From Flectonema sp. DT1601 (lineage: Eukaryota): a stretch of 64,000 nt of DNA. A model generated the notes under the pieces. That model worked only from the letters and a program-made list of their open reading frames with translations. It was not told the DNA's origin and ran no database searches. Numbering within the stretch: the first letter of the stretch is position 1; each line of letters begins with the position of its first letter. Position numbers and translations under genes: made by a program. Positions 3,837 through 62,884 of the stretch are shown here, in pieces. The DNA lies in contig OZ025785.1 of NCBI GenBank assembly GCA_964019425.1, positions 186,001 through 250,000 of the forward strand, given 5' to 3'.

Positions 3837-3911
3837 GCTTCAGACGTATTTATTATCTTCTAACAAGTACTATTCAGTCAATGTAGGTAAGTAAGATTAA
3901 ATCATCACACG
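3837..3911 (-). ncRNA. Terminal (tenth) C/D snoRNA copy with a variant D-box guide
   Basis: Same C, D' and C' boxes; D guide TAATAAATACGT-CTGA instead of TAATAAATATTG-CTGA. Confidence 0.75.
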
Positions 3912-5731
3912 AAGAACAGACACAAGACGACATCCAGAGAGTTGCTGCATACTACCAGAGATGAGCAACTCTCCACAACACAAGGACAGGACACTCAGAA
4001 CACAAAGAGCAGCCATCAAACAAATAACTTCACTGATAGTCAGCAATATTTATTATCTTCTAACAAGTACTATTCAGTCAATGTAGGTAAGTAAGATTAA
4101 ATCATCACACGAAGAACAGACACAAGACGACATCCAGAGAGTTGCTGCATACTACCAGAGATGAGCAACTCTCCACAACACAAGGACAGGACACTCAGAA
4201 CACACAGAGCAGCCATCAAACAGATAACTTCACTGATAGTCAGCAATATTTATTATCTTCTAACAAGTACTATTCAGTCAATGTAGGTAAGTAAGATTAA
4301 ATCATCACACGAAGAACAGACACAAGACGACATCCAGAGAGTTGCTGCATACTACCAGAGATGAGCAACTCTCCACAACACAAGGACAGGACACTCAGAA
4401 CACACAGAGCAGCCATCAAACAGATAACGTCACTGATAGTCAGCAATATTTATTATCTTCTAACAAGTACTATTCAGTCAATGTAGGTAAGTAAGATTAA
4501 ATCATCACACGAAGAACAGACACAAGACGACATCCAGAGAGTTGCTGCATACTACCAGAGATGAGCAACTCTCCACAACACAAGGACAGGACACTCAGAA
4601 CACACAGAGCAGCCATCAAACAGATAACTTCACTGATAGTCAGCAATATTTATTATCTTCTAACAAGTACTATTCAGTCAATGTAGGTAAGTAAGATTAA
4701 ATCATCACACGAAGAACAGACACAAGACGACATCCAGAGAGTTGCTGCATACTACCAGAGATGAGCAACTCTCCACAACACAAGGACAGGACACTCAGAA
4801 CACACAGAGCAGCCATCAAACAGATAACTTCACTGATAGTCAGCAATATTTATTATCTTCTAACAAGTACTATTCAGTCAATGTAGGTAAGTAAGATTAA
4901 ATCATCACACGAAGAACAGACACAAGACGACATCCAGAGAGTTGCTGCATACTACCAGAGATGAGCAACTCTCCACAACACAAGGACAGGACACTCAGAA
5001 CACACAGAGCAGCCATCAAACAGATAACTTCACTGATAGTCAGCAATATTTATTATCTTCTAACAAGTACTATTCAGTCAATGTAGGTAAGTAAGATTAA
5101 ATCATCACACGAAGAACAGACACAAGACGACATCCAGAGAGTTGCTGCATACTACCAGAGATGAGCAACTCTCCACAACACAAGGACAGGACACTCAGAA
5201 CACACAGAGCAGCCATCAAACAGATAACGTCACTGATAGTCAGCAATATTTATTATCTTCTAACAAGTACTATTCAGTCAATGTAGGTAAGTAAGATTAA
5301 ATCATCACACGAAGAACAGACACAAGACGACATCCAGAGAGTTGCTGCATACTACCAGAGATGAGCAACTCTCCACAACACAAGGACAGGACACTCAGAA
5401 CACACAGAGCAGCCATCAAACAGATAACTTCACTGATAGTCAGCAATATTTATTATCTTCTAACAAGTACTATTCAGTCAATGTAGGTAAGTAAGATTAA
5501 ATCATCACACGAAGAACAGACACAAGACGACATCCAGAGAGTTGCTGCATACTACCAGAGATGAGCAACTCTCCACAACACAAGGACAGGACACTCAGAA
5601 CACACAGAGCAGCCATCAAACAGATAACGTCACTGATAGTCAGCAATATTTATTATCTTCTAACAAGTACTATTCAGTCAATGTAGGTAAGTAAGATTAA
5701 ATCATCACACGAAGAACAGACACAAGACGAC
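3847..5731. repeat. Tandem array of a 200-bp unit, about 9.4 near-identical copies
   Basis: TATTATCTTCTAACAAGTAC recurs at 3851, 4051 ... 5651. Confidence 0.98.
4037..5711 (-). ncRNA. Nine tandem box C/D snoRNA copies (about 75 nt each, e.g. 4037-4111), SNORD34/U34/snR62-like
   Basis: Minus strand: GTGATGA (C) ... CTTACCTACATTG-A-CTGA (D') ... AGAAGA (C'-like) TAATAAATATTG CTGA (D). The D' guide is complementary to the conserved LSU rRNA CAAUGUAGGUAAG, and the fifth-nucleotide rule gives the same U as U34. Confidence 0.8.
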
Positions 5732-20111: not shown

Positions 20112-20634
20112 CTACCAGAAGGGAATCGCGAAGTAGTAGTCTTTCAGTGAGTAGTCACCAAGAATGTCTTTTATTGTGTTATAATTGGATATGTCTTTGA
20201 CAGTATCGTAACCTTTATATTCCTCATCACTTCCAATAAAGAGGAAAAAATGTGTACGTGATCCTCTATGTGAAACTATAAGAAATGGTATACGTTTAAG
20301 GTTCTGTTTTGAGACCTTGAGTAAGATATCTTGTAGATCTTCATCTGTAGTTACATGTGTAGACTCGAGGTTCAGGTAGATCCGAAGTGTTTCATAAATG
20401 ACAAGTTGATGGAACCATCCATCTTCTTCGAATTTGAACATCTTTAAAAACTTCTATTTCCTTCAAACCATCCGTGTTAAGTACTGTCTGATAGAGTTGA
20501 CGTTGAATTAGAAACATTTTTGATATCTCAATTCTCTTCTCCTTAAGATGGTCAGCTATAAAGTTAATAACAGCCCATCCACACTCACCTCCACTTAGAC
20601 CTTCACCTGAAGTTTTATGAAGAGTTGTTGGGAA
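20112..20634 (-). pseudogene. Disrupted Josephin/papain-like cysteine protease tail of copy 2
   Basis: In frame after the TGA: FPTTLHKTSGEGLSGGECGWAVINFIADHL; after a +1 shift: DGWFHQLVIYETL...THFFLF...YDT (candidate Cys/His/Asp triad). Confidence 0.65.
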
Positions 20635-23600
20635 TCATTCATCTGATGCTGACGGATCTGCTTCTGAGTAAGAGAGACCATTATGAGAACCAACTGAAAT
20701 CCGATTAGTCTTCAGAAAAGAATACTTTTTAGTGTTTTGTCCATCAGAACCATTACACGGAATTGTATTCAGAGAGGGATTGCCTTGTCCCTTATAATCC
20801 TTATGCAGGTGGGGATACTTTGTTTTTGCAGGAGAGTAATTGATATTTCCATTTACAGTTTCTTCTAATTTCGCACAATTAAGTTTCAAGGGACCGAATC
20901 TAAAAGTGTTCTCAATGAGTTCTGTTCCTGTGAAGTACACACAGCCAATGAGTTTTTTTAATTTTCTGGATTTACTTACTTTGAATTTTCCTCCTTCCCA
21001 GCTGCTTATGTCTTGATGTTCATAAAAAGTTGTGTTAAAAACGACGAAATATGGGATCTCGTTCCTTTCAAGAAACTCGACACACTCCGATTCGAGAATG
21101 TTACTTTTGACCGTCGGCCACGAATCAGGCGACGGCATAAATTTGTCCTGCATAAGAGCCACCAATAGATCATCCCCACAGTAAAACGGAACAATACGTT
21201 CTACTCCCTTTTCGCATTGCTTCTTTGATGCGACAGTGTAACCATCCTTCAAGTAGTTTAGCATAGTCTTGTCGTGATCCTTATTATATAATTCATTGTT
21301 CTCAACAGTAGTTTCAGCGAGCCTTTTTTGCGATTTCCCCAGGTTCTTGACATTCTTCACTAATGATGTCTCCGTCTCCAGTATATTTATTTTGAGTTTC
21401 TTTTCTTCAAAACTCTCATCACTGGTGGATCCCTCCTTTAAGCTCTTGAACTTTGCCCCTGCAAAAAATTCCTTCACTGTAACTACCTCTTTATTAACTA
21501 AAAGAATCTTTCTAATACACTCAAAGTTCATTGTTACGGTTTCCATGTTCTTCTCTTGTCCTGGAACACATAAGACGTCACCCTCGTAAGCATCTCGTAG
21601 ATGATTCTTTAGTAACTTAATGAGATTATTATTACCATCGATGTCATCATTGTTGTCATCATTAGCCCACAGTCTTAACAACTGAGGTACCAAATACTGT
21701 AGGCCGTCTGCATCCTGAATTAATCCCTTCTCCTTCCAAAGTTCTAAATCATCACCTGACACGCTACCAGTGAACCAACGACATACATTCTTATAATTGA
21801 GGAAGTTATTTATTATATTTAACTTTACTCTCGAGTATGACTTCTTAATCTTATAACTAAAAACACTCTCAGAATCATTCGTGTCGAGTAATGAGAGGAG
21901 TCCCGGGTTACCTCCACACGACAGAAATGATTGCCAAAGAGACTTCGATTCACGAATAACTTTCATCTTTTCATCAGCAATCGCAAGGATCGAATTTTCC
22001 GGACTGAGATTGTACAACGGAATACTTGAGATGGATCCGTCTGTCGTCAAATAGTCAGAATCGAGTCCTGTGAAGACGAACATGACACGCTTGTTGGAGT
22101 TCTTCCTTGAGTCATCTTGAATGGTCATGAGTGCAGAGATAAGGGACTGCACATATTGGGATTGCACATTTCCTTTCTGTCCATCATCGTGTGGGATGAG
22201 ATCATCGACGAAGATGATCATACCCTTGCGGTTCTCGTATTTCTTGAGATCGAATAGCTGTTCTATTATCTCTACCAGGGAAGGTGGAGACTGAGCAGTT
22301 TCGTCACTTATCCCATTGGAAGACAGCAGTTGGGTAGTAAACTGTTTGATTTGTTCATCTTTATCATTAGACAGTTCGACTGGTTCAGAATAAGTGACGA
22401 CAACAGAAATGAATTCTTCTTCATTAACCTCAGCTGACATGTTTTTAATGAATGTTGTCTTCCCAGCCCCAGGGATACCAATCGCTGCCAGGGGTTTGAA
22501 TCCGCCGCCCTCTTTATTTTTATTTAGAAACTGGTCCTCATCTTCTCCAAAAAAGAATGCCTCTTTATATTTATTAAATACTTCGATGCTCTTTTCACGC
22601 CCAAGAAATGGTTTAAATGGTTCACTTGCCCATCTGAGAGAATTTAACTTTTGTTTGGAATCCTTGATTTTTGAACCTTCGATCGCTTTTTCTAATTCGA
22701 TGCTCTCTCCTAATTTAGCGACATTTCCTTCTAATTTATCATTCTGAAGTTTAGTACAACCCCTTTTTAATCCTGTGATGTCTGTTATAATTGACATAGT
22801 ACCATTAATTAATATCCACATGCTCATTGGTAATTCCTTCTCTTTTATTGTTTTGATGCACGGTAATAATTTGGTGATTTCATTTGATATTCGTCGATTA
22901 TTAATTAAGCGATTGATGTATGCTTTTTGGTCCGTGTCTAATTGTCCGGAATAAAAATTAAAAACTTCGTTATTTTCCCAACCTTCGACTCCATTTTGTA
23001 GTTCATTGATGCACTCTGTTGGTTCAATACAACTTTTTCTTATGTTTTCGATCTCTTCTAAACTTTTTAAACATAGTTCGGTGGTATCGTTTTTTAGTTT
23101 CTTTTTTGAGTCCTCAATTTTGTTTTCTAATTCCGTATTATTTGGTACCACGTCTTCTGATGATGCGATGGCCACCAAAAATAGAAAAGTCTTAAACATT
23201 TCGAAGATAGTACTTATTGTGCTGATTTGCGTATTAATTGTGGAAATGATATCACCTAACGCAGATTTGGATTTTCCAAGGCTGCCTAAACTTTTGATGG
23301 CTGTTTCGATATTATTTTCAAAAGGCTTATTATTAATTAATTTATTAATTAAATTTTTTAGTTTTTTACCAATGGTCAAGTTTAGTTGAGTAGCAGCCCT
23401 ACGATCTTTGGCCTTTATTTGTAATTCATTCCAGCTGCTTGTTAACGATTCTACATGCTCGGTTTTTGTTACGTTGATGCTCGTTACTAATTTGATGATT
23501 TCATTTAATACTAATTGATCTTTAATCAAGCAATTGATGACCGGTTCATAGGTATCGATGCACTTCGTGGTAGTTTCCAATTGGAACTTTTCATCATCTG

Positions 23601-24081: not shown

Positions 24082-25066
24082 TGTTATATTTTATTAGGTT
24101 ACTTGTTATTGTAATCAAACTTCGAGGAATTCTTAAATTGCATAAAAACTGAAACACCGTTTTATCAACTCCGAGTTGCTTAAGTGAGAACAGTTGGTGA
24201 GTTCACTCTCACAACCCTTCAGGTTACTTTCTTTCATTTGTCCCTGATGAAGATTTTAGACAGAGTGGGTATTGCTGAAAGATAAGTGTAATAATAATAT
24301 TAATGTATTCATAGGAAACTCACTCACTCAACTCACCCTCCTCTTCTTCCACTTCTCTTACCGATCCTTTATTGTTACTGAAGAAATGTGAAGATTTAAT
24401 TAATCGTTTTTTGAGTCGAATATAATTTTTAATTAACTCTCAATTCTGAGAGCTACCTGAAAGTTAGTCAACTCGATTTCATTATAATTAGTTGGCAGTG
24501 TTTTCACAAAACGAGTATTCATTTGGTACACAAAAGGTTTGTTAATGTTATTTTAGATATCTGATGTATTTATTGCAAGACATCAATTAAATAAAAAAGT
24601 TAGGTTCTCAGGATAAAAAGGTCAGGCTTTGAATTCCAAAATTGGAGGCGAATATGCCGAGAGAGAGAGAGAAAGAGAAAAAAACTCTCTCACACACAAA
24701 AGCCTTGCAAAACTACTAATTCATGTGGGTCATAATTTTATTATTTGATATATAGGTAGTTTGTTAAAAAAAGGAGAGTTTGAGGTTTTTTTTTTAATAT
24801 TGTATCAAAAAAAGTTAACTAAAAAATAAAACTATTAGTTATGATACACGTTGACTAAAGGTAATGTTAGTATCGGTAAACACTCTGCATGTGACGTAAA
24901 GACTTCACACTATAATTATAATGCAAGGTCCCTACGTTAAAGGAGGAGGGGGGATGTATGTTCGATTTTGTAAAAATTACAACTGTGTTGTATCATAAAA
25001 ACATAAAGATAATTTAACATTAGTTTTAAATACAGTGACTAAGGGTGATGCGCAACTTAGCATATT

Positions 25067-25202
25067 AAAGTAACTATAGGTTTCGAGAGTAATCCATATA
25101 CCTCTTACCTCTATTCTCTCTCATCAGTATGGTGTAGAAGTAAGTCAGTCAAATGTTGAGACTGAGTCATTCCAGTTTGCAGGACTGGAATGTAGTTACT
25201 TT
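25067..25202 (-). ncRNA. Predicted rearranged hammerhead ribozyme, family A copy 2 (best preserved)
   Basis: Stem I CCATA/TATGG, stem II GAGAG/CTCTC, stem III ACCT/AGGT, pseudoknot CTTACTTCTA/TAGAGGTAAG, intact CTGATGA, GAAA and GTA; predicted cut between 25099 and 25098. Confidence 0.75.
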
Positions 25203-26432
25203 AAGTTTCACGTTCATAATAAAAAAAACATATTATTTACTGTTACTAGTTCGTGAAAAGGAAGGGGGTTGAGGAATATCAAAAGAAATTTATAAAAAAA
25301 AAACCCATTCACCCTCTACAACAATAATCTACTAAAGATAAATTGATTATAATGATGTTTTGTTAGATATGTAAAGGATGTTAACGGCTACTGGTCGATG
25401 TTGAAAAAGGTAAGAAAAAGGAGATCAAATTAAAATAATTCAAAAGCAGAAGAAGAGAAGAGAAGGAAATCATCACAAGACAATCAGTTAAAATTAACTG
25501 GGGTTGGTATTTATTTTTTTTTAAAAAAAACTGATCGTTGTTGTACAACATTACAAAACTTCCCTCCTCCACAGTACTTCCACGTCCATTGAAAACATGT
25601 GGACAGGAGCAGGGAGTTCGGATGGCCTTCAGTCTTTCAGTGTCGGAGTATTCAACATTCGAAATAAAATATTTAAAAAAAACAAAAAAACTAAAATAAA
25701 AAACACACACTCAATTATTTGGTAATCAGCAAAATACTGAAAATAAATACCACCGCTGACCAGCTTCAAAGGGTACCAAAAATCCCACAGGTACGGACTT
25801 GATGGGAAAAAACTCCCCTCACCAGTCAGTAACTTGTATCGTATGTTTTCGTATCTTTGCTCACATTAGTTTGGTACACAAAAGGTTTCTAAAACTCTGT
25901 TGTGTATTCGCAAGAATGGTTAGGGAAGGAAATAAAAAAATTTTCAAAAAAAAAAAAAAAATTGAACTTCAAGAATTCGCACAAAGAGGATTATTTCATT
26001 AGTTCACTCAAAGAAAGATGAAATAAACAAAACCCCCACGACAAAGGATAGGACGGAGTTCAGTCATATTTACTTCCAAATCATTCACACTTAACTTTTG
26101 GAGTTATCTCGGGGAGAGGGAAAAACAACTAAAGCAACGGGCAAGGTTGTGGGTGTTTTCTGTTTACACTTTCTTCTATTCGTAGTATTTTTTATTCTTT
26201 TTTTTTTTTTCATTTCACACTCAAAATTGAAATCCCTCGAGTTGACATAATTTGTGTCACAAATTCGACGGGACATTATTATCATCGCAGTGAGACGACT
26301 GTTTTTACTTCACAACAATCTTTTGAATGAGCAAGTAGAAATGATTTGAGATCCAGAGGAGGGATGTCTTCAGACGAGTACATCACAGCGTGATATTCGT
26401 AGTCTTTCAGTGAGTACTTAACAAGAATGCCA

Positions 26433-32278: not shown

Positions 32279-32951
32279 CTACCAGAAGGGAATCGCGAAG
32301 TAGTAGTCTTTCAGTGAGTAGTCACCAAGAATGTCATTTATTGTGTTATAATTGGATATGTCTTTGACAGGATCGTAACCTTCATATTCCTCATCACTTC
32401 CAATAAAGAGAAAATAATGTGTACGTGGTGCTCTAAGTGAAACTATAAGAAATGGTATACGCTTGTTTGAGACCTCTTGTTCTATAACGTCTAGTTCGTC
32501 AATAGTTACATGTGTAGACCTGAAGGACAGGTAGATTCCTAATTGATTCATAAATGACATGTTGATGGAACCATCCATCTTCTTCGAATTTGAACATCTT
32601 TAAAAACTTCTATTTCCTTCAAACCATCCGTGTTAAGTACAGTCTGATAGCGTTGACGTTGAATTAGAAACATTTTTGATATCTCAATTCTCTTCCTCCC
32701 CTCAAGATGGTCAGCTATAAAGTTAATAACAGCCCATCCACACTCACCTCCACTTAGACCTTTACCTGAAGTTTTATGAAGAGTTGTTGGGAATCGGTTA
32801 TCTGATGCTAATCTGATCTATTTCTGTTATGATTAGAGAGACCATTATGAGAACCAACTGAAATCGGATTAGTCTTCAGAAAAGGATACTTTTTAGTGTT
32901 TTGTCCATCAGAACCATTACACGGAATTGTATTCAGAGAGGGATTGTCTTG
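32279..32951 (-). pseudogene. Disrupted Josephin-like protease tail of copy 4
   Basis: Homologous to 20112-20634 (DNRFPTTLHKTSGKGLSGGECGW...THYFLF...YDP); separated from the gene by a TGA and frameshifts. Confidence 0.65.
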
Positions 32952-37212: not shown

Positions 37213-37348
37213 AAAGTAACTATAGGTTTCGAGAGTAATCCATATACCTCTTACCTCTATTCTCTCTCATCAGTATGGTGTAGAAGTAAGTCAGTCAAAT
37301 GTTGAGACTGAGTCATTCCAGTTTGCAGGACTGGAATGTAGTTACTTT
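37213..37348 (-). ncRNA. Predicted rearranged hammerhead ribozyme, family A copy 3
   Basis: Identical to 25067-25202 (within the duplication). Confidence 0.75.
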
Positions 37349-44424: not shown

Positions 44425-45097
44425 CTACCAGAAGGGAATCGCGAAGTAGTAGTCTTTCAGTGAGTAGTCACCAAGAATGTCATTTATTGTGTTATAATTG
44501 GATATGTCTTTGACAGGATCGTAACCTTCATATTCCTCATCACTTCCAATAAAGAGAAAATAATGTGTACGTGGTGCTCTAAGTGAAACTATAAGAAATG
44601 GTATACGCTTGTTTGAGACCTCTTGTTCTATAACGTCTAGTTCGTCAATAGTTACATGTGTAGACCTGAAGGACAGGTAGATTCCTAATTGATTCATAAA
44701 TGACATGTTGATGGAACCATCCATCTTCTTCGAATTTGAACATCTTTAAAAACTTCTATTTCCTTCAAACCATCCGTGTTAAGTACAGTCTGATAGCGTT
44801 GACGTTGAATTAGAAACATTTTTGATATCTCAATTCTCTTCCTCCCCTCAAGATGGTCAGCTATAAAGTTAATAACAGCCCATCCACACTCACCTCCACT
44901 TAGACCTTTACCTGAAGTTTTATGAAGAGTTGTTGGGAATCGGTTATCTGATGCTAATCTGATCTATTTCTGTTATGATTAGAGAGACCATTATGAGAAC
45001 CAACTGAAATCGGATTAGTCTTCAGAAAAGGATACTTTTTAGTGTTTTGTCCATCAGAACCATTACACGGAATTGTATTCAGAGAGGGATTGTCTTG
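44425..45097 (-). pseudogene. Disrupted Josephin-like protease tail of copy 6
   Basis: Identical to 32279-32951. Confidence 0.65.
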
Positions 45098-53871: not shown

Positions 53872-54434
53872 CTACTCAAACCCTGCAAGATGTGTGCTGG
53901 GCCAGCCCACAATAACAATGGCCGCTTTCTGTGTCTTATTGGTGCTGTTATCTGGTTCAGGAGCCTTGAATTTCATTTTTTTAATTGGGAGAACATAGAT
54001 GATGACATGGTAAGTGATGGTAATTGATAAGCCTTGTATATGTGAAATCAAGCCTTTAATATCTGCTTTGTTGAACTTCAAGGGACCGTGTGTTGTTTCA
54101 GAAACTGTTGTTTGTAGCATATACAGAACACTTTTCTTACTCTTCTTAGCTAGGAAGAAGAAATCCAACCCGTGAAAATTGGACTTATTAGGCTGGTAAA
54201 GCACCCCAACTTCAGGGACACAGCTGCTGCTTAATGTCTCGTAGCCGTGCTTTTCGAGTCTGATAGTCTTCCGGCCCATTTGAAGAGTGCCTCCTGCCGC
54301 AAAATATGACCGAAACTTCAGCTCAAAGATGCATCCCAGGTAGCCCTTGTTCTCAATCCTCTCGATGAAGGTTTTGTTACACATCTCTTTCTTCCCTCTG
54401 CTGCTGTTTTACATACATTAAAGATTTTCTCACT
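53872..54434 (-). pseudogene. 5'-truncated Crinkler/RHS family 2 gene (nuclease half)
   Basis: GCIFE...LYQPNKSNFHGLDFF...LQTTV (CR-REase pattern); paralogous to 60760-61245. Confidence 0.75.
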
Positions 54435-54435
54435 C

Positions 54436-54601
54436 ATCTGTCTCATCCTTAAAGTACCCAGCAACCTTCTTATGCTTCTTCAGAGAACATTGGTTGGTCC
54501 ACTGGATAGTTGCAGGTGTCAAGTTCATCCTTAATACCTTCCAGTGACTTATGTAGGTCATCGGTCTTGATGTGTAGGATGAAGCTGTCTGTGTCAGCGT
54601 A
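54436..54601 (-). pseudogene. Polinton/Maverick-type protein-primed family B DNA polymerase fragment
   Basis: YADTDSFILHIKTDDL...LDTCNYPVDQPMFS, then after a frameshift KKVAGYFKDE. Confidence 0.85.
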
Positions 54602-54891
54602 AGTCTTCTGTAGATAACTTCTCATCAACCGCTGGGTCATAAGTATACATGTAATCGGTTTCATACTTCCAGTTCAGCTCTGGAGAGACATCAAGATGGA
54701 TCCCATATGAAGATACCAGATGGCGACCACCTACAATCACGCTTTAGTCTGCGATCATCACGAAGGGTTTCTTCACAGTGTTGTTAGTTAGAATATGAGT
54801 TTATTATAAAAAAGTGCACTAAAATAAAATATAAAAAAGAAAAATTATAAAAACACATTGTTCTGCTGTTCCATAATACACTGCGGAATAC

Positions 54892-54960
54892 GTAGTTTCA
54901 GGCCTTAATCTTATACTACTTGTCCCTCTTTAGGTCTTCATCAGTAAGTTCTAAGGGACA
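54892..54960 (-). ncRNA. Predicted rearranged hammerhead ribozyme, family B, at the 3' end of the Penelope-like element
   Basis: TGTCCCT..CTTA CTGATGA AGACCT..AGGGACA A GTAGTA^TAAG ATTA AGGCCT GAAACTAC; one A-C mismatch in stem II; predicted cut between 54914 and 54913. Confidence 0.7.
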
Positions 54961-55069
54961 TTCCAGTTAATTAATAAATCAGATTTATCAATCGGTCTAT
55001 TTCAAAGGAACTGATTTCTTAAAGTCCATCGGAGCTCGCCAGGACGGGCTAGCATATATTTGCTTTTGA

Positions 55070-56142
55070 TCAGCGTTCTATCTCTTCTACATCTGTTCGT
55101 TTTATTACGAGTGCGAGTTCTCCTTCATCGGAGCTGTAGTCGTCTTTCTTGCGCTTTTCCTTAGTGTTGGTGAGGAGTAGAATTCCTTCATTCGAGGGTG
55201 CCATGGTACAGTCGTTATCATTATTATTACCCTGCAGAGTTTTCTTAAAATCATGTGAAAACAATATTCTGGGCGTTTAAAATGTCTGTCAAAATGGTCG
55301 AATGATAATCGCCGGTCGGTCGCTCCTTGCTCGTTGCTGCCAGGTTCTACTTTTTGATGTTCTTCGTAGAATGTTTGTTGTAGTTCTTGCAAATAGCTGA
55401 AATTTATTCGGTCAAGATAAAGATGGTCTGCAACAAAATTCAGCGATGCCCATCCACACTCACCTCTAATTAGACCTTCCCCTGAAGATTGATGTGATTG
55501 TATTGGGAATCGTTTGTCTAAGGTGTGAAGTGTGGAACTTTTATGATTAATGGTGTCTTTTTCGTCGCTTACAGGGATACCATGATTAAACTTTTCGGAA
55601 GTAATATTTAGTCGTCTTCGAATTGCAGCTGCAACATTGCCATCGTCAATATATAAGTTGATAAAGCTGTGACAAGCTACTGCGAGGTTCTTAAACTTGT
55701 ATCCTCGGTTGAGTAGTCTGTATGTTACGAACTCGAACTCTTGTAGAAGATCTGTCTGATTATTACAGATTCTGAGTGCTCGTAGGAGAATGGTGGTGAA
55801 GATACCAGTACCCATCGATTCTTGAGCAGCCGAGTGCTGGTGAGTGAATCTTGTTGGTATTATGTGCCATCCACGCGCTTTGTCGTTAACGCTAAGACGT
55901 ATCCATCTGTTGTTTGATTTTGTGGTTTCGATTCGGATTCTAATTCCAATGTATGAAACATCATCAATACCATTAGAGGTCTCGGTGTAGTTCATGGAGT
56001 ATAATTCTGCTGGTGGTGGGTTGCAGTTCCATGTAAGGAAATCGTCTACGTAACGGCAAGAGTAGTCATGTTTGCGTGCTAAATCTAACTCTCCTTTCGC
56101 TACAAGGTCATCCATAAATTTAGATTCGATTCTGTAACAGTG
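55070..56142 (-). mobile_element. Penelope-like retroelement remnant: RT C-terminal half, thumb and Josephin-like domain
   Basis: RYVDD, VSYIGIRI, VNDK, S...GIF...LLRALRICN...LLNRGY (PLE RT/thumb pattern), followed by SGEGLIRGECGWASLNFVADHL. Confidence 0.8.
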
Positions 56143-56334
56143 AATTCGATAGAGTGGGAAGTAACGGACTGGGAGCTTTTGGCTCCTGCCCTATTCCCGA
56201 TGTAAACTTTCTTTTTATTTTTTTTTTTTTTTTTAACAGGCCCAGAGGGCGACAATGACTGTTGCTGACCAAGGAATAATATTCAAATGAATTTTCGTTT
56301 CAAAGAAACGAACAGAATTAAGAGAGAGGCAGAG

Positions 56335-56365
<31 letters not shown>

Positions 56366-56544
56366 AAAAAATATGAAGAGGAAATAATCAAACATGAAAA
56401 AAATAAAAAAAAAAAAATAAAATATAAATAAAAAACGTTGTATGAAAAAGGAAAAAAAAAAAAAAAAAAAAAAAAGACCAGAAAAGGAAAGAGAAAATGA
56501 AAAGGTATAATATTATTGTGGGGATATGAGGATAGCAGGGAGAT

Positions 56545-56576
<32 letters not shown>

Positions 56577-56976
56577 ATTTATTATTTAAAAAAAGGAAAC
56601 AATCAGTTTAGCGTCTCGATCGGGACGGAAAATAGAAATTAATCGACATAGTCGATCGATAGAAAAAAAAACAATGATAACATTGTTTATTCATTTTTTT
56701 TTTTTTTTTTTTTTTTTAAATCCTTTTAATTATTTTAAAGAAAAAACAATCAGTTTAGCGTCTTGACCAGGACGGAAAATAGAAAGTGATCGACATAGTC
56801 GATCGATAAAAAAACAATGATAACATTGTTTATTCTTTTTTTTTTTTTTTTTTAAATTCTTATTATTTATTTTTTAAAGAAAAAAAAACGGAAAATAAAA
56901 ATTAGTCGACAAAGTCGAACGATAAAAAAAAAAAAAAACAATGATAACATTGTTTATTCTTTTTTTTTTTTTATAT

Positions 56977-58237
56977 GAGAGGATGCCAAAAGTAGGGTAC
57001 CATTTTGTACCACGGGTAACTGCCGGCCTCTAAATCTTGGTCTGAGCACTTTTTTGGCCCACTCTGTATATTAGAAAACTCAATTCCGGGTCTGGGATAC
57101 AACTTTACTTGTCACCAGTTCAAAAATTCTGCAATTTTTAGGGGAAATTGACTGTATTACTGTGTTATGCAGTACACACACGGGGGGCAGGCGAAGCTAA
57201 GAGGACTGATGGACTGATATTGATCATTCGTGTGCATTCTGCACCTACACTAACTTACTAATAATGTTGTACACACTTATGTTTTTTAAGGGGTTACACT
57301 GCTACTTGAATCAGAGCTTTCGGGTTCAGAACGACGGTCTGGACAATTTCGGAGATCATGAGTAAGAGAGCTGCACTGGCTGCATTGGCGCTTCTTTCTA
57401 ACAGGCTTCTCGGGGGCACTTTTCCGTTTGCAGGCTCGTTGTTGGATGGTGTGCTCCCTGTCAACCTTTCAAAAAAGGCTTCTTTTCTTGCTCGTTTATT
57501 CTTCAGGGAATCGATATGCTGACTGTGCTCTATCTCTGCAAACTTGTTGTTGTCCGCGGTTGTGTCAAGGGGTGTAGATCCAATAGTGCTCTTCTCAGCT
57601 CTAGTAAGGGGAAGCTTATCTGATATTTTGGGCTTGTGGTTCAGTAGCAAAGTAGCCTTACCTCCGTCAAGTGCAAATTGCGGGTTTTCGTCAGAGAAAG
57701 CTGTGATATATATCTGACCTGAAGTATCCTTTCGGTAGGTGGGGATGCTGGTTACGGCCGGGATGCGGAGGTTCTGCACACTCACTTCTTGCTCTTCAAA
57801 GAAGAGGAATACAAGTGTTGTGTCGCTGAGCGTTCGGAGTACGCCTGCCACCTCGGTGAGGGTACGCACCGGTGCCCACTCTCGATGAGGTCTGGATGAC
57901 ATTTGATATGCTGCCGAAATGCCTGTCACAGTGGCTCTCGTTCTAGAGTATCCTTAATTGTCATTGTTATTTGTGAAGCTGTGATTCAAGCGAGTGACAC
58001 TCTCCTACTACTACCTTACAAATTGGTCTCAACTGTGCACAAGCATCTTACAGTGTAATACAGTCAATTTCCCCTAAAAATTGCAGAATTTTTGAACTGG
58101 TGACAAGTAAAGTTGTATCCCAGACCCGGAATTGAGTTTTCTAATATACAGAGTGGGCCAAAAAAGTGCTCAGACCAAGATTTAGAGGCCAGCAGTTACC
58201 CGTGGTACAAAATAGGCCCTACTTTTGGCACGTCCTC
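56977..58237. mobile_element. Non-autonomous Sola-like DNA transposon, 1261 bp, about 185-bp TIRs, ATAT target duplication
   Basis: Long near-perfect inverted repeats (56977-57160 / 58055-58237), GAG...CTC termini, ATAT on both flanks. Confidence 0.85.
57294..57929 (-). pseudogene. Internal ORF of the TIR element, possibly a transposase C-terminal remnant
   Basis: 211-codon open frame inside the TIRs; no catalytic motif recognised. Confidence 0.35.
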
Positions 58238-58907
58238 ATATTCTTTTTTTATTAATTTTGAAAAAAAAAAAAACAATCAGTTTAGCGTCTTGACCAGGAC
58301 GGAAAATAGAAAGTAATCGACATAGTCGATCGATAAAAAAACAATGATAACATTGTTTAATCTTTTTTTTTTTAATTTTTTTTTTATTTATTTTTTAAAG
58401 AAAAAAAAAACGGAAAATAGAAATTAGTCGACAAAGTCGAACGATAAAAAAAACAATGATAACATTGTTTATTCTTTTTTTTTTTATTTTTTTTATATTT
58501 TTTTTTTTTAATTAATTTTGAAAAAAAAAAACAATCAGTTTAGCGTCTTGACCAGGACGGAAAATAGAAAGCGATCGACATAGTCGATCGATAAGAAAAC
58601 AATGATAACATTGTTTATTCTTTTTATTATTTTAAATTCTTTTTATTTATTTTTTAAAGAAAAAAAACGGAAAATAGAAATTAGTCGACAAAGTCGAACG
58701 ATAAAAAAAACAATGATAACATTGTTTATTCTTTTTTTTTATTTTAAATTCTTTTTATTTATTTTTTAACAGGAGTTAAGATCACTTACATGAGTTAACA
58801 CAACACAGATACGAGAGTCGCAAACTGAGGTAACACTACCAATTCAACAAAAAATAATCAGGATCGGACACAAGGAGGAGAGTTCATTCTACCTCTCATT
58901 GTCCTTG

Positions 58908-59008
58908 CTGGTATCTTAAGTGTCTTGGTATCTCTTGTGTGTCGGTATCTCGGAAGTGCTGGTATCTCGTTTGTGCGTTGGTATCTCTTGCGTGTTGGTA
59001 TCTCTTGC
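58908..59008. repeat. Short tandem repeat, six GGTATCT(C/T) units at 16-20-bp spacing
   Basis: Read directly from the sequence. Confidence 0.85.
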
Positions 59009-59288
59009 ACATAAAAAAAAAAAATATTGAGTTAACATGATCAGTATTATTTAACATTAAAGACAGACCGGAACTATTTGAAAATAAAATGTAGATGGGA
59101 AACAGTGAAAATTAAAATGAATGATAAAATTAAATGAGATTTATGACATAACAGACCAGATAGAGAGTAATAAAGGGAAAAGGAAAACGGGAAGGGTTCA
59201 TTCACTTAGTTAAAGTTAAGACCGATTAGTCAGTTTAAGGTCTTGACTAGGACCAACAAAAAAAAAAAAAATAAATAAATAAATAAAT

Positions 59289-59478
59289 AACGATCAAGCT
59301 GAGCTGATCTTGTTTTTATTAAAATAAGGGGAGCGGGAGGGATGGGAGGAATAAAGGAAAAAAAAAGAAAAGGTCGATCAATTGGGTCTGATCGTCGAGA
59401 AGAAGAAGACAATTATTTTAAAGGTCGATCGGCATAGCCGATCGTTGAGAAAAAATAACCAGATATAAATACAATCAG

Positions 59479-59510
<32 letters not shown>

Positions 59511-59701
59511 TTAACGATCAAGCTGAGCTGATCTTGTTTTTATTAAAATAAGGGGAGAGGGAGGGATGGAAGGAATAAAGGAAAAAAAAAAAAAGGTCGA
59601 TCAATTGGATCTGATCGTCGAGAAGAAGAAAACAATTATTTTAAAAAAATGATCGGTATAGCCGATCGTTGAGAAAAGAACAGATATAAATACAATCGGT
59701 T
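59289..59701. repeat. Two copies of a CGATC-rich unit, 224-bp period
   Basis: AACGATCAAGCTGAGCTGATCTTG at 59289 and 59513. Confidence 0.9.
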
Positions 59702-60422
59702 TTGGTGATCGACGAGTGGAGCGATCACTTGACAAGAAGGAAAAAAGAAAGGACCGATTAATTGGGGCTTTGGTTGTATTCCCAAGGCATGTTTTTTTTT
59801 TTTTTTATTATTCATTTACATTATTTTTTTTTTTTTTTTTAAATTAATAATCACATTTTGTTCAAAAATATTTCATATTAGAGTAAAAGAAAAAGAAAAA
59901 AAAAGAGATAAGAGAAAAAAAAAAAAAAAAAAACCATTGCTGGCCCCCTCACCACTCATAGAGGATGAGGAGGCCAGTAAGGCGTCACTCAAAAACTATG
60001 CCAAGCCTTGGGAACTTGGATTGGGGTTTAGACCATTTATAATTAACAATTAACAATTAACCTGATTAACGTTATGATCTGACGGACATAAACATATCGA
60101 TAAAATAATACAAACAAAAACGAACAATAAATAATAAATAAGCTAAAAAACTAAATAAACAAAGTGATGTGAAAGTAAGGAAAAAGAGAATTACAAGGGG
60201 GTGGAGTCACCGTGAACGTCATCAGCAGAACATCTCCTTCGATTGTAACGATATCTTGATGGAGGGGTTCGTTTTTTCAGAGTTGAACGCTCAGACTTTC
60301 TCGGCGGAGTTTCATTTTCCTCATGTTCTTCTGTGTCTGGCGGACTCAAACCTTCTGCCCATGAAGCTAATTGGAACTTCAGGGCCGCAATTTGAGACCG
60401 TGCCAAGGCGAGTTGAGCATTT

Positions 60423-60488
60423 AAAGAGATTAGCTATATCGCTACTTGCGTTGCCGCCCATGGGAATGCCAACTACTTGTCTCCATAG
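60423..60488 (-). pseudogene. Isolated Penelope-like RT motif B' fragment
   Basis: Hand translation LWRQVVGIPMGGNASSDIANLF. Confidence 0.8.
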
Positions 60489-60759
60489 GTTTAAGCTGAC
60501 AGACTGAAGAACCTGTCAACCAAGAAAGTTCTCTACTTTTCTTTGAACTAAATATTGAAACTAAAATTACACTTGTTCAGTTCACTTCTGCTTCTTTTTG
60601 GTGTCAAATGAGAGTTCCGTGTCTTGTTTCTGTTCATTTTTTTTCTTTTTTTGCAGCTTCTCCAGGTTTGTGAACGAATAAGCAGTCTAAATCTTGCTAA
60701 ACCCTGTAAGAGGTGTGCTGGGCCAGCCCATAACAGTGGTGGCCTCATTCTGCGACTTA

Positions 60760-62441
60760 TTACTGCCTTTTTCTGTTTTTCGGAACCTTGAAATTCGCAT
60801 TTTCAAGTGGGAGAACATAGATCATGGTATAAGAGGCAATTGTGAATTTCTGCTTTGTGATACATGAAACCAAGCCTTTAATATCTGCGTGGTCGAACTT
60901 CAAGGGACTGTGTGATTTGTCAGCAACTGTTGTTTGTAGCATATTGAGAACGATCTTCTTATTATTCTTATTCTTAGCTAGGAAGAAGAAATCCAACCCA
61001 TGAAAATTGGACTTATTAGGCTGGTAAAGCACCCCGAGTTCAAGATTACAACTACTGCTGAATGTCTCATAGCCCAGCCTTTTGAGTTTGATGGTCTTTT
61101 TGGTTCCCACTGTAAGTTCGCGTCCTTCGGCAAAATATCTCTTGAACTTCAGTTCAAAGATGCATCCCAAGTAGCCCTTATTCTCAATCCTCTCGATAAA
61201 AGTTTGTTCTCCTAATCTTTTCGATTGCTTGCGGCAGTGCAGCATCGATCAAAAACAGACTTACTGATGAATCCTTGAGGGTGGCCACTCTCATCGAGGT
61301 CTACTAATCCATCCACAAACATAGTAGTTGTCTTCGGGGTCACTCCGGTCATTACGTTGTTTATGAAATCAACAGTCACGCTGCGAAGTGCTTCGTCGAT
61401 CATTCCTTCAGAATATATAGGGTTGCAAATCAGTAGTCGCAACACACCTCCATAGGTTTCGAAGCGTTTTTCCAGCTCGTTGTCGTTCGATAACACCTTA
61501 CATTTTACAAGAAACTTAGCTTCTTCGAAGGTCCACAGCACAAGGCAAGTCATTGGTGGGGAAACCTTATAGATTTCACTTCCAGTCTGAAATCGCCCAG
61601 GTGAACCTGTCAGGATGAGGGCTTCCATCCCATATAAAGACTTGTCGATCGACTTCAGTTCTTTGGGTGCCTCTAACAGCCCAAGTCCTTTTTTCTTTTG
61701 ACCTTCATCAAGGATAGTCTCGTATTTTGCCCGAGTGACACCGAATTCACCGTCCTTCACCTGGGTGATTGTATAGACCCAGTTAGCATTCGAGAAATAC
61801 ACCACATCAAACTTCTTCAGCCAATCATCTTTCCTATTCACCCACAACCACAACAGGTAGAAACGAAAGGTTGTCTTCCCAATACCAGGTGTACCCCCCA
61901 CACGGTGGACACGTTTAGTTTTGGATTGCGTTAAAAGATCACTGTCTTTTTCTGATATGTACTTCAGTGTTGTCTTGTAGCAGTCACGCTCCGCAATTAG
62001 TTCCGCTTCATCATAATGCTCAGTGATTCCCTTATCCTTGAGCTTCCTTCTCAGATCGATGACGCCGTCTTTGTTCTTCTTGGCATCCTTCATAGCTCCC
62101 AACAGCTTCTTCATCTTCTTGCAGGCTTTCACTGTGACTTCATCGTTTGTGGGCGTTGATGATCTGGGGTTTGTCAAGTGGTTGAGCCTTTCTTGCGCTT
62201 TCTTTATTTCGATTTTCTTACTGTTGAGTACAGTTTCCTGCCTTCGAATCTCAGCTCTCAACCTCTTTTTCTTCCCCTCCTGGTCTGATTCAGGTTTAGA
62301 TCTCGTGTTGGAAGTGTCAGTGCTACTGCTGGAGCGTCGCTTGCTTTTTGTTTTCTTCTCCACCGTCACTTCAACTTCCGCCTCAGGGTCACTACTGTCT
62401 ACTGGGTTCACCTTCTTCCTGCTGTAATTCTTTCCCGGCAT
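60760..62441 (-). CDS. Crinkler/RHS family 2 gene: NTPase (61212-62441) and restriction-like nuclease (60760-61245) in different frames
   Basis: GTPGIGKT, ILTGSP, LWTFEE, YGGVLR (RHS/CR-NTPase); GCIFE, LYQPNKSNFHGLDFF, LQTTV (CR-REase); -1 frame change near 61218. Confidence 0.75.
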
Positions 62442-62642
62442 AGTTCTGTTTCCTGTGCTGGAGAAAACATTTCAATGAAAAAGTAACATAAGCAGGGGGG
62501 GACTTGGATAAATAAATCAAGGTTAACGGGGGGTTGAATGTTTGAATTTGTAAAATACAACTGTTTTGTATTGCGTAACATAGCGATGGTTTAACATCTG
62601 TTAAGGATACAGTGACTATGGTGATGCTTAACTTAGCCTTTT

Positions 62643-62780
62643 AAAGTAACTATTAGGTTTCGAGAGTAATCCATATACCTCTTACCTCTATTCTCTCATC
62701 ATCAGTATGTTTTAGAAGTAAGTCAATCAATTATTTAGACTGAAGCACTCCAGTTTGCAGGACTGGAGTGTAGTTACTTT
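62643..62780 (-). ncRNA. Predicted rearranged hammerhead ribozyme, family A diverged copy
   Basis: Same architecture, with a compensatory change in the 5' hairpin (CACTCCAGT/ACTGGAGTG versus CATTCCAGT/ACTGGAATG); an extra T after CTGATGA may inactivate it. Confidence 0.6.
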
Positions 62781-62884
62781 TGTTTCTTTTATTAAAATAT
62801 AAAAAAACTTTATATCATTATTACTAGTTCGTAGCGCACTACTAGTGGAGCACTCTTCTACAATAAATGTAGAAAGTGTGATAA

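Follow-up and report, generated by a model that had tools for sequence, protein, structure and literature searches.

A probable type-CSG hammerhead ribozyme past the stop codon of a degraded Penelope-like element

A reverse transcriptase (RT) and a GIY-YIG nuclease in one ORF are the mark of Penelope-like elements (PLEs). For minimal type I hammerheads in PLE repeats, Lunse et al. 2017 is reportedly a source beside Cervera and de la Pena. The window analysed here, by which we mean the whole stretch of 64,000 nucleotides, carries on its minus strand a motif, called B in the following, that has the parts of a hammerhead in a rearranged order and stands shortly after a broken PLE ORF. Is B a self-cleaving ribozyme, and does it belong to the element that precedes it?

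Motif B comprises all conserved hammerhead core letters, the three stems I to III as well as an extra helix of 8 bp, and it extends from 54960 to 54892 of the minus strand. The sequence-only reading had proposed a rearranged strand order together with pairings for the three stems and a pseudoknot. Reading each segment base by base placed every one of them on the minus strand, gave the block order C, S, G, and confirmed all listed pairings, stem II with one mismatch. The segments are as follows.

54880-54967, minus: whole ribozyme domain B, a type-CSG hammerhead with flanking closing helix (segments verified; the MFE fold recovers closing helix, extra helix and stem III)
54960-54953, minus: 5' strand of the extra helix, UGUCCCUU, which joins the stem I and stem II sides and pairs with GAGGGACA (8 bp, the last one G-U)
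Between extra-helix 5' strand and stem I 3' strand, minus: spacer AGAA
54932-54948, minus: block C (stem I 3' strand, core, stem II 5' strand)
54948-54945, minus: stem I 3' strand CUUA
54944-54938, minus: core CUGAUGA
54937-54932, minus: stem II 5' strand AGACCU
Between stem II 5' strand and extra-helix 3' strand, minus: spacer AAA
54928-54921, minus: 3' strand of the extra helix, GAGGGACA, between the stem II and stem III strands
Between extra-helix 3' strand and stem III 3' strand, minus: a lone A
54910-54919, minus: block S (stem III 3' strand, H17, stem I 5' strand), predicted cut 54914/54913
54919-54915, minus: stem III 3' strand GUAGU
54914, minus: H17, an A
54913-54910, minus: stem I 5' strand UAAG
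Between stem I 5' strand and stem II 3' strand, minus: linker AUUA
54892-54905, minus: block G (stem II 3' strand, GAA, stem III 5' strand)
54905-54900, minus: stem II 3' strand AGGCCU
54899-54897, minus: GAA
54896-54892, minus: stem III 5' strand ACUAC

The core consists of CUGAUGA, GAA, the A15.1-U16.1 pair and an H17 that is A and not G, and hammerhead numbering predicts the cut between A54914 and U54913. All positions pair in stem I (4/4) and stem III (5/5), stem II pairs at 5/6 positions with an A/C mismatch at the third, and the extra helix has 7 bp, or 8 bp if the terminal G-U is counted. A closing helix surrounds the motif, in which ACU and GGAAU (54967-54960) pair with AUUCC (54889-54885) and AGU (54882-54880) across a 2-nt bulge. 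The two core halves, CUGAnGA and GAAA, are 38 nt apart. The pseudoknot-free MFE fold of the region recovered closing helix, extra helix and stem III together, with an energy no better than that of shuffled sequences (z = -1.11; an equal or lower energy was reached by 24 of 200 shuffles). Such a non-significant value is expected, because two of the five helices are pseudoknots that the folding program cannot score.

The same topology has been described before. Eckert, Friedrich, Weinberg and Weinberg divided the hammerhead into blocks C, G and S and reported non-circular permutations of them (Eckert et al. 2023, PMC10085705). Their type CSG comprises two similar unique sequences from a pattern search of soil metagenome DNA, with the host unknown. 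The published alignment runs from a helix strand through stem I, CUGAUGA and stem II to the second helix strand, and continues with stem III, the cut, stem I, an A/U-rich linker, stem II, GAA and stem III (Eckert et al. 2023). Therefore, the fold of B is the published type-CSG permutation, and the suggestion that it was undescribed had to be given up. B is a new member of this type, unrelated in sequence to the published pair.

Motif B and the published ribozymes CSG-1 and CSG-2 agree in the 5'-to-3' order of all eight strands, the conserved core, the helix that ties stems I and II together and the A/U-rich linker between stem I and stem II strands (4-5 nt; 5 nt in the published pair), and all are known from DNA (Eckert et al. 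2023). Beyond the core, however, B has no sequence likeness to CSG-1 and CSG-2, as judged by eye on the published alignment. B and a second family of the window, family A, have spacers of 2-4 nt flanking the extra helix (4 and 3 nt in B), whereas the alignment of the published pair has none; their stem I has 4-5 bp instead of 6 bp, and both possess an outer closing helix. The published pair comes from soil metagenomes with no host or neighbour, while B stands in the tail of a eukaryotic retroelement. Type-SGC hammerheads (HRIMA-1 and variants) resemble B as a non-circular permutation with two pseudoknots, a short A/U-rich linker between blocks S and G and a helix that links stem I to stem II, but their order is S-G-C and not C-S-G, and they are described almost only from metatranscriptomes, with hairpin ribozymes on presumed circular RNAs (Eckert et al. 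2023).

Models of canonical hammerheads did not detect these motifs. No match was obtained in the whole window at Rfam gathering scores, and a scan of 54700-55150 at E <= 10 returned no hammerhead family, only chance-level miRNA and scaRNA matches. Gathering-score scans covered 20 of the 73 related loci treated below and found no canonical hammerhead there. When all six block orders were searched, CSG was the only one found. Annotation pipelines built on Rfam models or on three-way-junction descriptors would overlook all such motifs.

What precedes B is the 3' part of an RT ORF, of which a second piece lies further upstream.

55070-56145, minus: 3' part of the PLE ORF (RT motif C, DKA, C-terminal extension), from tblastn of P0002 and P0003 and from ORFs
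60423-60488, minus: detached RT piece with RT motif B, GIPMGGNASSDIANL, corresponding to P0002 residues 113-134

The UGA stop of this ORF is located at 55072-55070 on the minus strand and is separated by 109 nt from 54960, close to the 110 nt given before, and on the same strand as B; CUGAUGA follows 126 nt past the stop codon. Compared with the window ORF, the P0002 protein of another contig has 97% identity and P0003 has 72%. With P0002, tblastn against the window gave 96.7% identity over 273 aa and 82% over 74 aa; residues 133-405 map to 56145-55327, about 83 residues are absent near 55327-55294, and the frame changes there. P0002 and P0003 contain RT motifs A, B and C and the DKA motif; of these, motif C (RYVDD) and DKA are present in the window ORF, and RT motif B in the detached piece. 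No N-terminal half, and so neither GIY-YIG nor CxC, was found by tblastn upstream of RT motif B in the window. The 4.3 kb that separate the RT pieces are repeat-rich DNA. An intron was considered as the cause of this break and rejected, as the interrupting DNA has no GT..AG ends and the ORF continues into unrelated residues.

The class of this RT is given by its longer relatives. GIY-YIG stands N-terminal to the RT in P0005, P0009 and the metagenomic ORFs of L004 and L007, and all five aligned long relatives have a CxC motif between GIY-YIG and RT. An N-terminal GIY-YIG with CxC is the mark of the Naiad/Chlamys group of PLEs, and DKA replaces DKG in Naiads (Craig et al. 2021, PMC8557442). The upstream element is thus assigned, on the basis of its relatives, to the PLE group with N-terminal endonuclease (Naiad/Chlamys type), and not to the PLEs with minimal type I motifs. 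Pfam RVT_1 matched the relatives weakly, below the curated cut-off, and the 361-aa ORF of the window gave only a sub-threshold Longin match, which we take as chance. Among solved structures P0003 alone had no match up to E = 10, and the alignment profile had weak matches to the GIY-YIG domain of I-TevI (E 0.25-0.32) and none to an RT. Since structure searches returned no RT, the RT class rests on domain order and motifs. In the ESM Atlas the best scores for P0003 were 0.81, which serve as leads only and point to clusters with HTH_animal and RVT_1. In the viral contigs searched, no relative of the RT was found. Pfam UCH occurs among the relatives as well: the PLE-type ORF of L021 (24-4058) ends in a full ubiquitin C-terminal hydrolase domain (E = 2.6e-26), and the Pfam annotation of P0007 and P0008 lists the same family.

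The window copy of the PLE, together with B, is probably a relic, with a broken ORF and a mismatch in stem II. One substitution in the 69 nt of B fits the protein divergence of about 3% from P0002. Partial tandem copies or pseudo-LTRs were searched as direct repeats of the B region in the window, and none was found. Direct repeats do stand at the ends of two related contigs, 127 nt in L007 and 159 nt in L011, as would be expected of tandem copies.

How does B compare with the hammerheads known from PLEs? The minimal type I hammerheads of canonical PLEs have their core near the 3' end or in the repeats and on the strand of the element, as B does, and they share the presumed role in processing of the element RNA (Cervera and de la Pena 2014, PMC4209133). 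They are, however, three-way junctions free of knots, their stem III is very short, and they are thought to act as dimers. B, in contrast, would be a monomeric, pseudoknotted C-S-G form with a stem III of 5 bp, unmatched by the Rfam models. Also comparable to B are the eight 'HHR_half_core' cases of Naiad elements, which are likewise PLEs with N-terminal endonuclease and have CUGAnGA in the 3' UTR; in these, GAAA stands at 35-50 nt from CUGAnGA in an arrangement that fits no stem-loop descriptor (Craig et al. 2021), and the spacing of 38 nt in B falls into this range. Craig, Yushenova, Rodriguez and Arkhipova (2021, PMC8557442) left these cases unexplained and concluded that the N-terminal-endonuclease clade is without canonical hammerheads. 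In the literature searched on hammerheads and on PLEs and Naiad, we found no published link between a permuted hammerhead and Penelope-like elements.

Whether the fold recurs behind related RTs was addressed by scanning metagenome contigs with an alignment of the RTs, which yielded 73 loci with 221 kb in total. A strict CSG descriptor matched L023 and L025, in both cases downstream of the RT and on its strand, and nothing on the opposite strand. Across 200 shuffle sets of the loci it matched twice in total, and no set contained two matches. Allowing a 1-nt bulge after A9 added L042, which brings type CSG to 3 of the 73 loci. The stems of L023, L025 and L042 differ from one another and from families A and B at nearly every position with the pairs kept. 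Together, A, B, L023, L025 and L042 form five sequence-unrelated type-CSG families that keep all catalytic letters. For B this covariation is of the cross-family kind only, as B is known from one copy. The idea of a PLE lineage that uses the rearranged fold gains support from the three loci. In the MFE fold of L025 (3429-3555), the core region of GAAAC is taken up by a strand upstream of it; this pairing competes with the ribozyme fold and may be an off state or due to chance.

A second arrangement was more frequent. The split-core descriptor requires the stem II strand first, followed by S, G, the stem I strand and CUGAnGA, and it matched 15 of the 73 loci on the RT strand (L003, L004, L006, L007, L008, L011, L013, L020, L021, L027, L028, L035, L036, L040 and L068), none on the opposite strand and none in the window. 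All 18 permuted motifs (3 CSG and 15 split-core) are consequently on the RT strand. In the split-core loci there is no pairing directly after CUGAnGA, and the partner of stem II is located upstream of block S. In 12 of the 15, the counterpart of B's extra helix has at least 7 bp. L004 and L007 possess yet another helix, which closes the gap after A9 by pairing the stretch that follows CUGAUGA with the one ahead of the detached strand of stem II; L011 has it too, with covariation. By eye, the 15 loci fall into about nine sequence families. L001 and L024 appear split-core-like with a short stem III, also by eye only. A looser descriptor (3-bp stems, mismatches) returned L007 at 2381, L061 and L063; these matches were unconvincing, occurred on both strands and were left out of the counts. 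Sixteen of the 73 loci, L001 and L024 among them, extend 1 kb or more beyond the RT match and still gave no match to a descriptor. In loci with an intact ORF, the distance from stop codon to CUGAnGA ranges from about 120 to 640 nt (118 in L027, 145 in L004, 176 in L028, 391 in L020, 519 in L003, 625 in L008 and 636 in L021).

Both forms appear to be circular permutations of each other, since their eight strands follow in the same cyclic order. The putative opening point lies between stem III and the extra helix in type CSG, and between A9 and stem II in the split-core form. We placed the forms on a maximum-likelihood tree built from the best single RT match per locus (59 rows; root arbitrary), which left out 23 of 74 DNA rows with a match below 180 aa or with a stop, including four split-core loci. 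The window copy groups with P0002 and P0003 (support 100/99) and adjoins a split-core clade; L023, L025 and L042 stand together (97/88) and adjoin another split-core clade. The CSG label requires two changes on this tree, and none of 200 bootstrap trees allowed one change. Because the root is arbitrary, we claim no direction for the change between CSG and split-core. One branch of 17 RT rows has no descriptor match, though many of those contigs are short.

Family A is the second occurrence of the fold in the window. Its CUGAUGA starts at 62705, 37273, 25127 and 12027 of the minus strand, with the strand order of B.

25065-25204, minus: domain of the family A ribozyme, with closing helix, two hairpins and type-CSG core; the copy with its core at 37273 is identical
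24948-25254, minus: family A unit of about 307 nt, without ORF and with a C tract at its end, located in the spacer of every second unit of the tandem gene array
About 37400-37094 and 12155-11850, minus: further copies of the same family A insertion
62528-62832, minus: independent family A unit, 82% identical; the similarity covers the unit and stops at its ends

The fold of family A comprises a 12-bp closing helix, two hairpins, the extra helix and stem III, and its MFE of -44.1 kcal/mol was reached by none of 200 shuffles (z = -5.05). Between the two independent copies, one hairpin pair is changed on both sides; in the copy at 62705, CUGAUGA is followed by one additional U, and the fifth stem I pair is lost. 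Every helix of family A differs in sequence from its counterpart in B with the pairs kept, so that the covariation between both families, which had been pointed out earlier, holds. The view that B stands at the 3' end of a Penelope-like coding remnant was right, but family A is located in an ORF-less unit and not at a PLE 3' end.

The surroundings of both families are rich in repeats. From 11215 to 49529 the window is a tandem array of 6.07-kb units with a higher-order period of 12.15 kb; what distinguishes its two variants of the unit is the family A insertion. Each array unit has a minus-strand ORF of 1150-1245 aa with weak AAA/STAND NTPase matches. Just past the ends of these ORFs (20470-20643, 32626-32802 and 44772-44948, minus), 52-59 aa are about 50% identical to residues 397-454 of P0003. 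This part of the P0003 C-terminal extension includes the GECGW motif, and the likeness of the array to it may be a shared domain or a captured fragment. A further tandem repeat with a period of 200 nt and copies more than 99% identical occupies 3847-5731. Closer to B, the 4.3 kb that split the RT (56146-60422) consist largely of repeats of 110-350 nt, among them the direct pair 56547-56973/58238-58769 and the inverted pair 56973-57160/58241-58055. Two stretches, 53878-54378 and 60699-61208, are copies of one repeat (79% identical) whose ORF of 160-180 aa matched nothing in Pfam; the former lies about 0.5 kb downstream of B, and the latter immediately upstream of the detached piece of the RT. 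A minus-strand ORF at 54470-54673 was suspected to be a DNA polymerase B fragment, an idea that was dropped when Pfam gave no match.

Taken together, the region 54967-54880 of the minus strand is likely a type-CSG hammerhead, with all core letters and four helices, that stands 109 nt past the stop of a degraded PLE and is predicted to cleave itself at A54914/U54913. The occurrence of the same fold in the ORF-less unit of family A, at two independent sites, suggests another origin for B, namely that it is a true type-CSG domain of a separate short non-autonomous element beside the RT remnant and not part of the PLE 3' UTR. In agreement with this, the B region is a mosaic of fragments, with the 4.3-kb interruption of the RT and the shared repeat after B, and B is known from one copy. 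A separate element is nevertheless unlikely. It leaves aside that the fold recurs in 3 of the 73 related loci, each time downstream of the RT and on its strand, and that 15 of 73 have a permuted relative of it. Moreover, the distance of 126 nt from stop codon to CUGAnGA falls in the near part of the range seen in loci with intact ORFs, and between the stop codon and B there is neither a target site nor a boundary with a C tract like that of family A.

Alternatively, B might have the knotted topology of a hammerhead without its activity, as an inactive look-alike whose structure serves, for example, protein binding or RT priming. The mismatch, the short stem I and the spacers of B, which are absent from the assayed examples, would be compatible with this, and the published CSG ribozymes are slow, with k_obs of 0.004 and 0.026 per min; their authors rate the biological support for the type as weaker, with few covariation events (Eckert et al. 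2023). CSG-1 and CSG-2 both cleaved in vitro at the expected site, however, and a core mutant did not (Eckert et al. 2023). The catalytic letters are kept in five independent families while the stems covary, which fits selection on catalysis and would not result from selection on the helices alone. We therefore regard an inactive structure as improbable, more so than a separate element.

The role of chance was addressed with a descriptor that demanded CUGAnGA, GAAA, an H that is not G and the block order C-S-G, with at least 4 contiguous pairs in stems I and III and 5-6 positions with at most one mismatch in stem II. In the window it matched B and three copies of family A only, and 500 dinucleotide-preserving shuffles of the window gave four matches in total on both strands. 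None of these 500 shuffled windows combined a match with an extra helix of at least 6 bp (8 bp in B, 10 bp in family A). A stricter version that allowed no mismatch matched once in 200 window shuffles. On the 73 loci plus the window, a tolerant descriptor found eight real matches compared to five in 100 shuffle sets (about 570 kb each, both strands). A chance match in AT-rich DNA, which the non-significant pseudoknot-free MFE and the shortness of the words CUGAnGA and GAAA might suggest, is very improbable in view of these controls and of the position of all real matches in related loci on the RT strand.

For the PLE hammerhead as the preferred reading of B, we propose the following course, which applies to intact members of the family. 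Their RNA would fold while it is being transcribed, and stems I and II would arise as pseudoknots that span the extra helix and stem III, both of them nested. The knotted hammerhead would then cut after GUA, between 54914 and 54913. Of the two products, the 5' one with the ORF would end in a 2',3'-cyclic phosphate some 156 nt past the stop codon, and the 3' one would start with the last 22 nt of the ribozyme. Its role is likely the one proposed for canonical PLE hammerheads, in which read-through or tandem transcripts would be trimmed to unit length (Cervera and de la Pena 2014; Craig et al. 2021). The ribozyme would also set where the RNA that is reverse-transcribed begins and ends.

A wider reading joins these observations, and we put it forward tentatively, as plausible while somewhat short of probable. 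PLEs with N-terminal endonuclease would carry hammerheads after all, in the type-CSG form (B, L023, L025 and L042) and in the split-core form (15 loci), and the two would have interconverted via tandem PLE copies, with at least two switches on the RT tree. The soil CSG ribozymes of 2023 could then be tails that such elements have in small eukaryotes, and the unit of family A and others without ORF may be their non-autonomous riders.

Type CSG was known from two near-identical soil sequences that were reported without host or neighbour (Eckert et al. 2023), and five unrelated families now add covariation to it. New is that a type-CSG motif has a defined setting, as it stands in a retrotransposon's 3' tail, which suggests a likely biological role for the permutation. 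The report of Naiad and Chlamys PLEs without canonical hammerheads put the importance of the ribozyme for PLE mobility in doubt (Craig et al. 2021). If these PLEs do carry knotted hammerheads that descriptors missed, the ribozyme may be a general feature of PLEs. The apparent link of the two knotted forms by circular permutation would furthermore offer a concrete route for the origin of RNA permutations.
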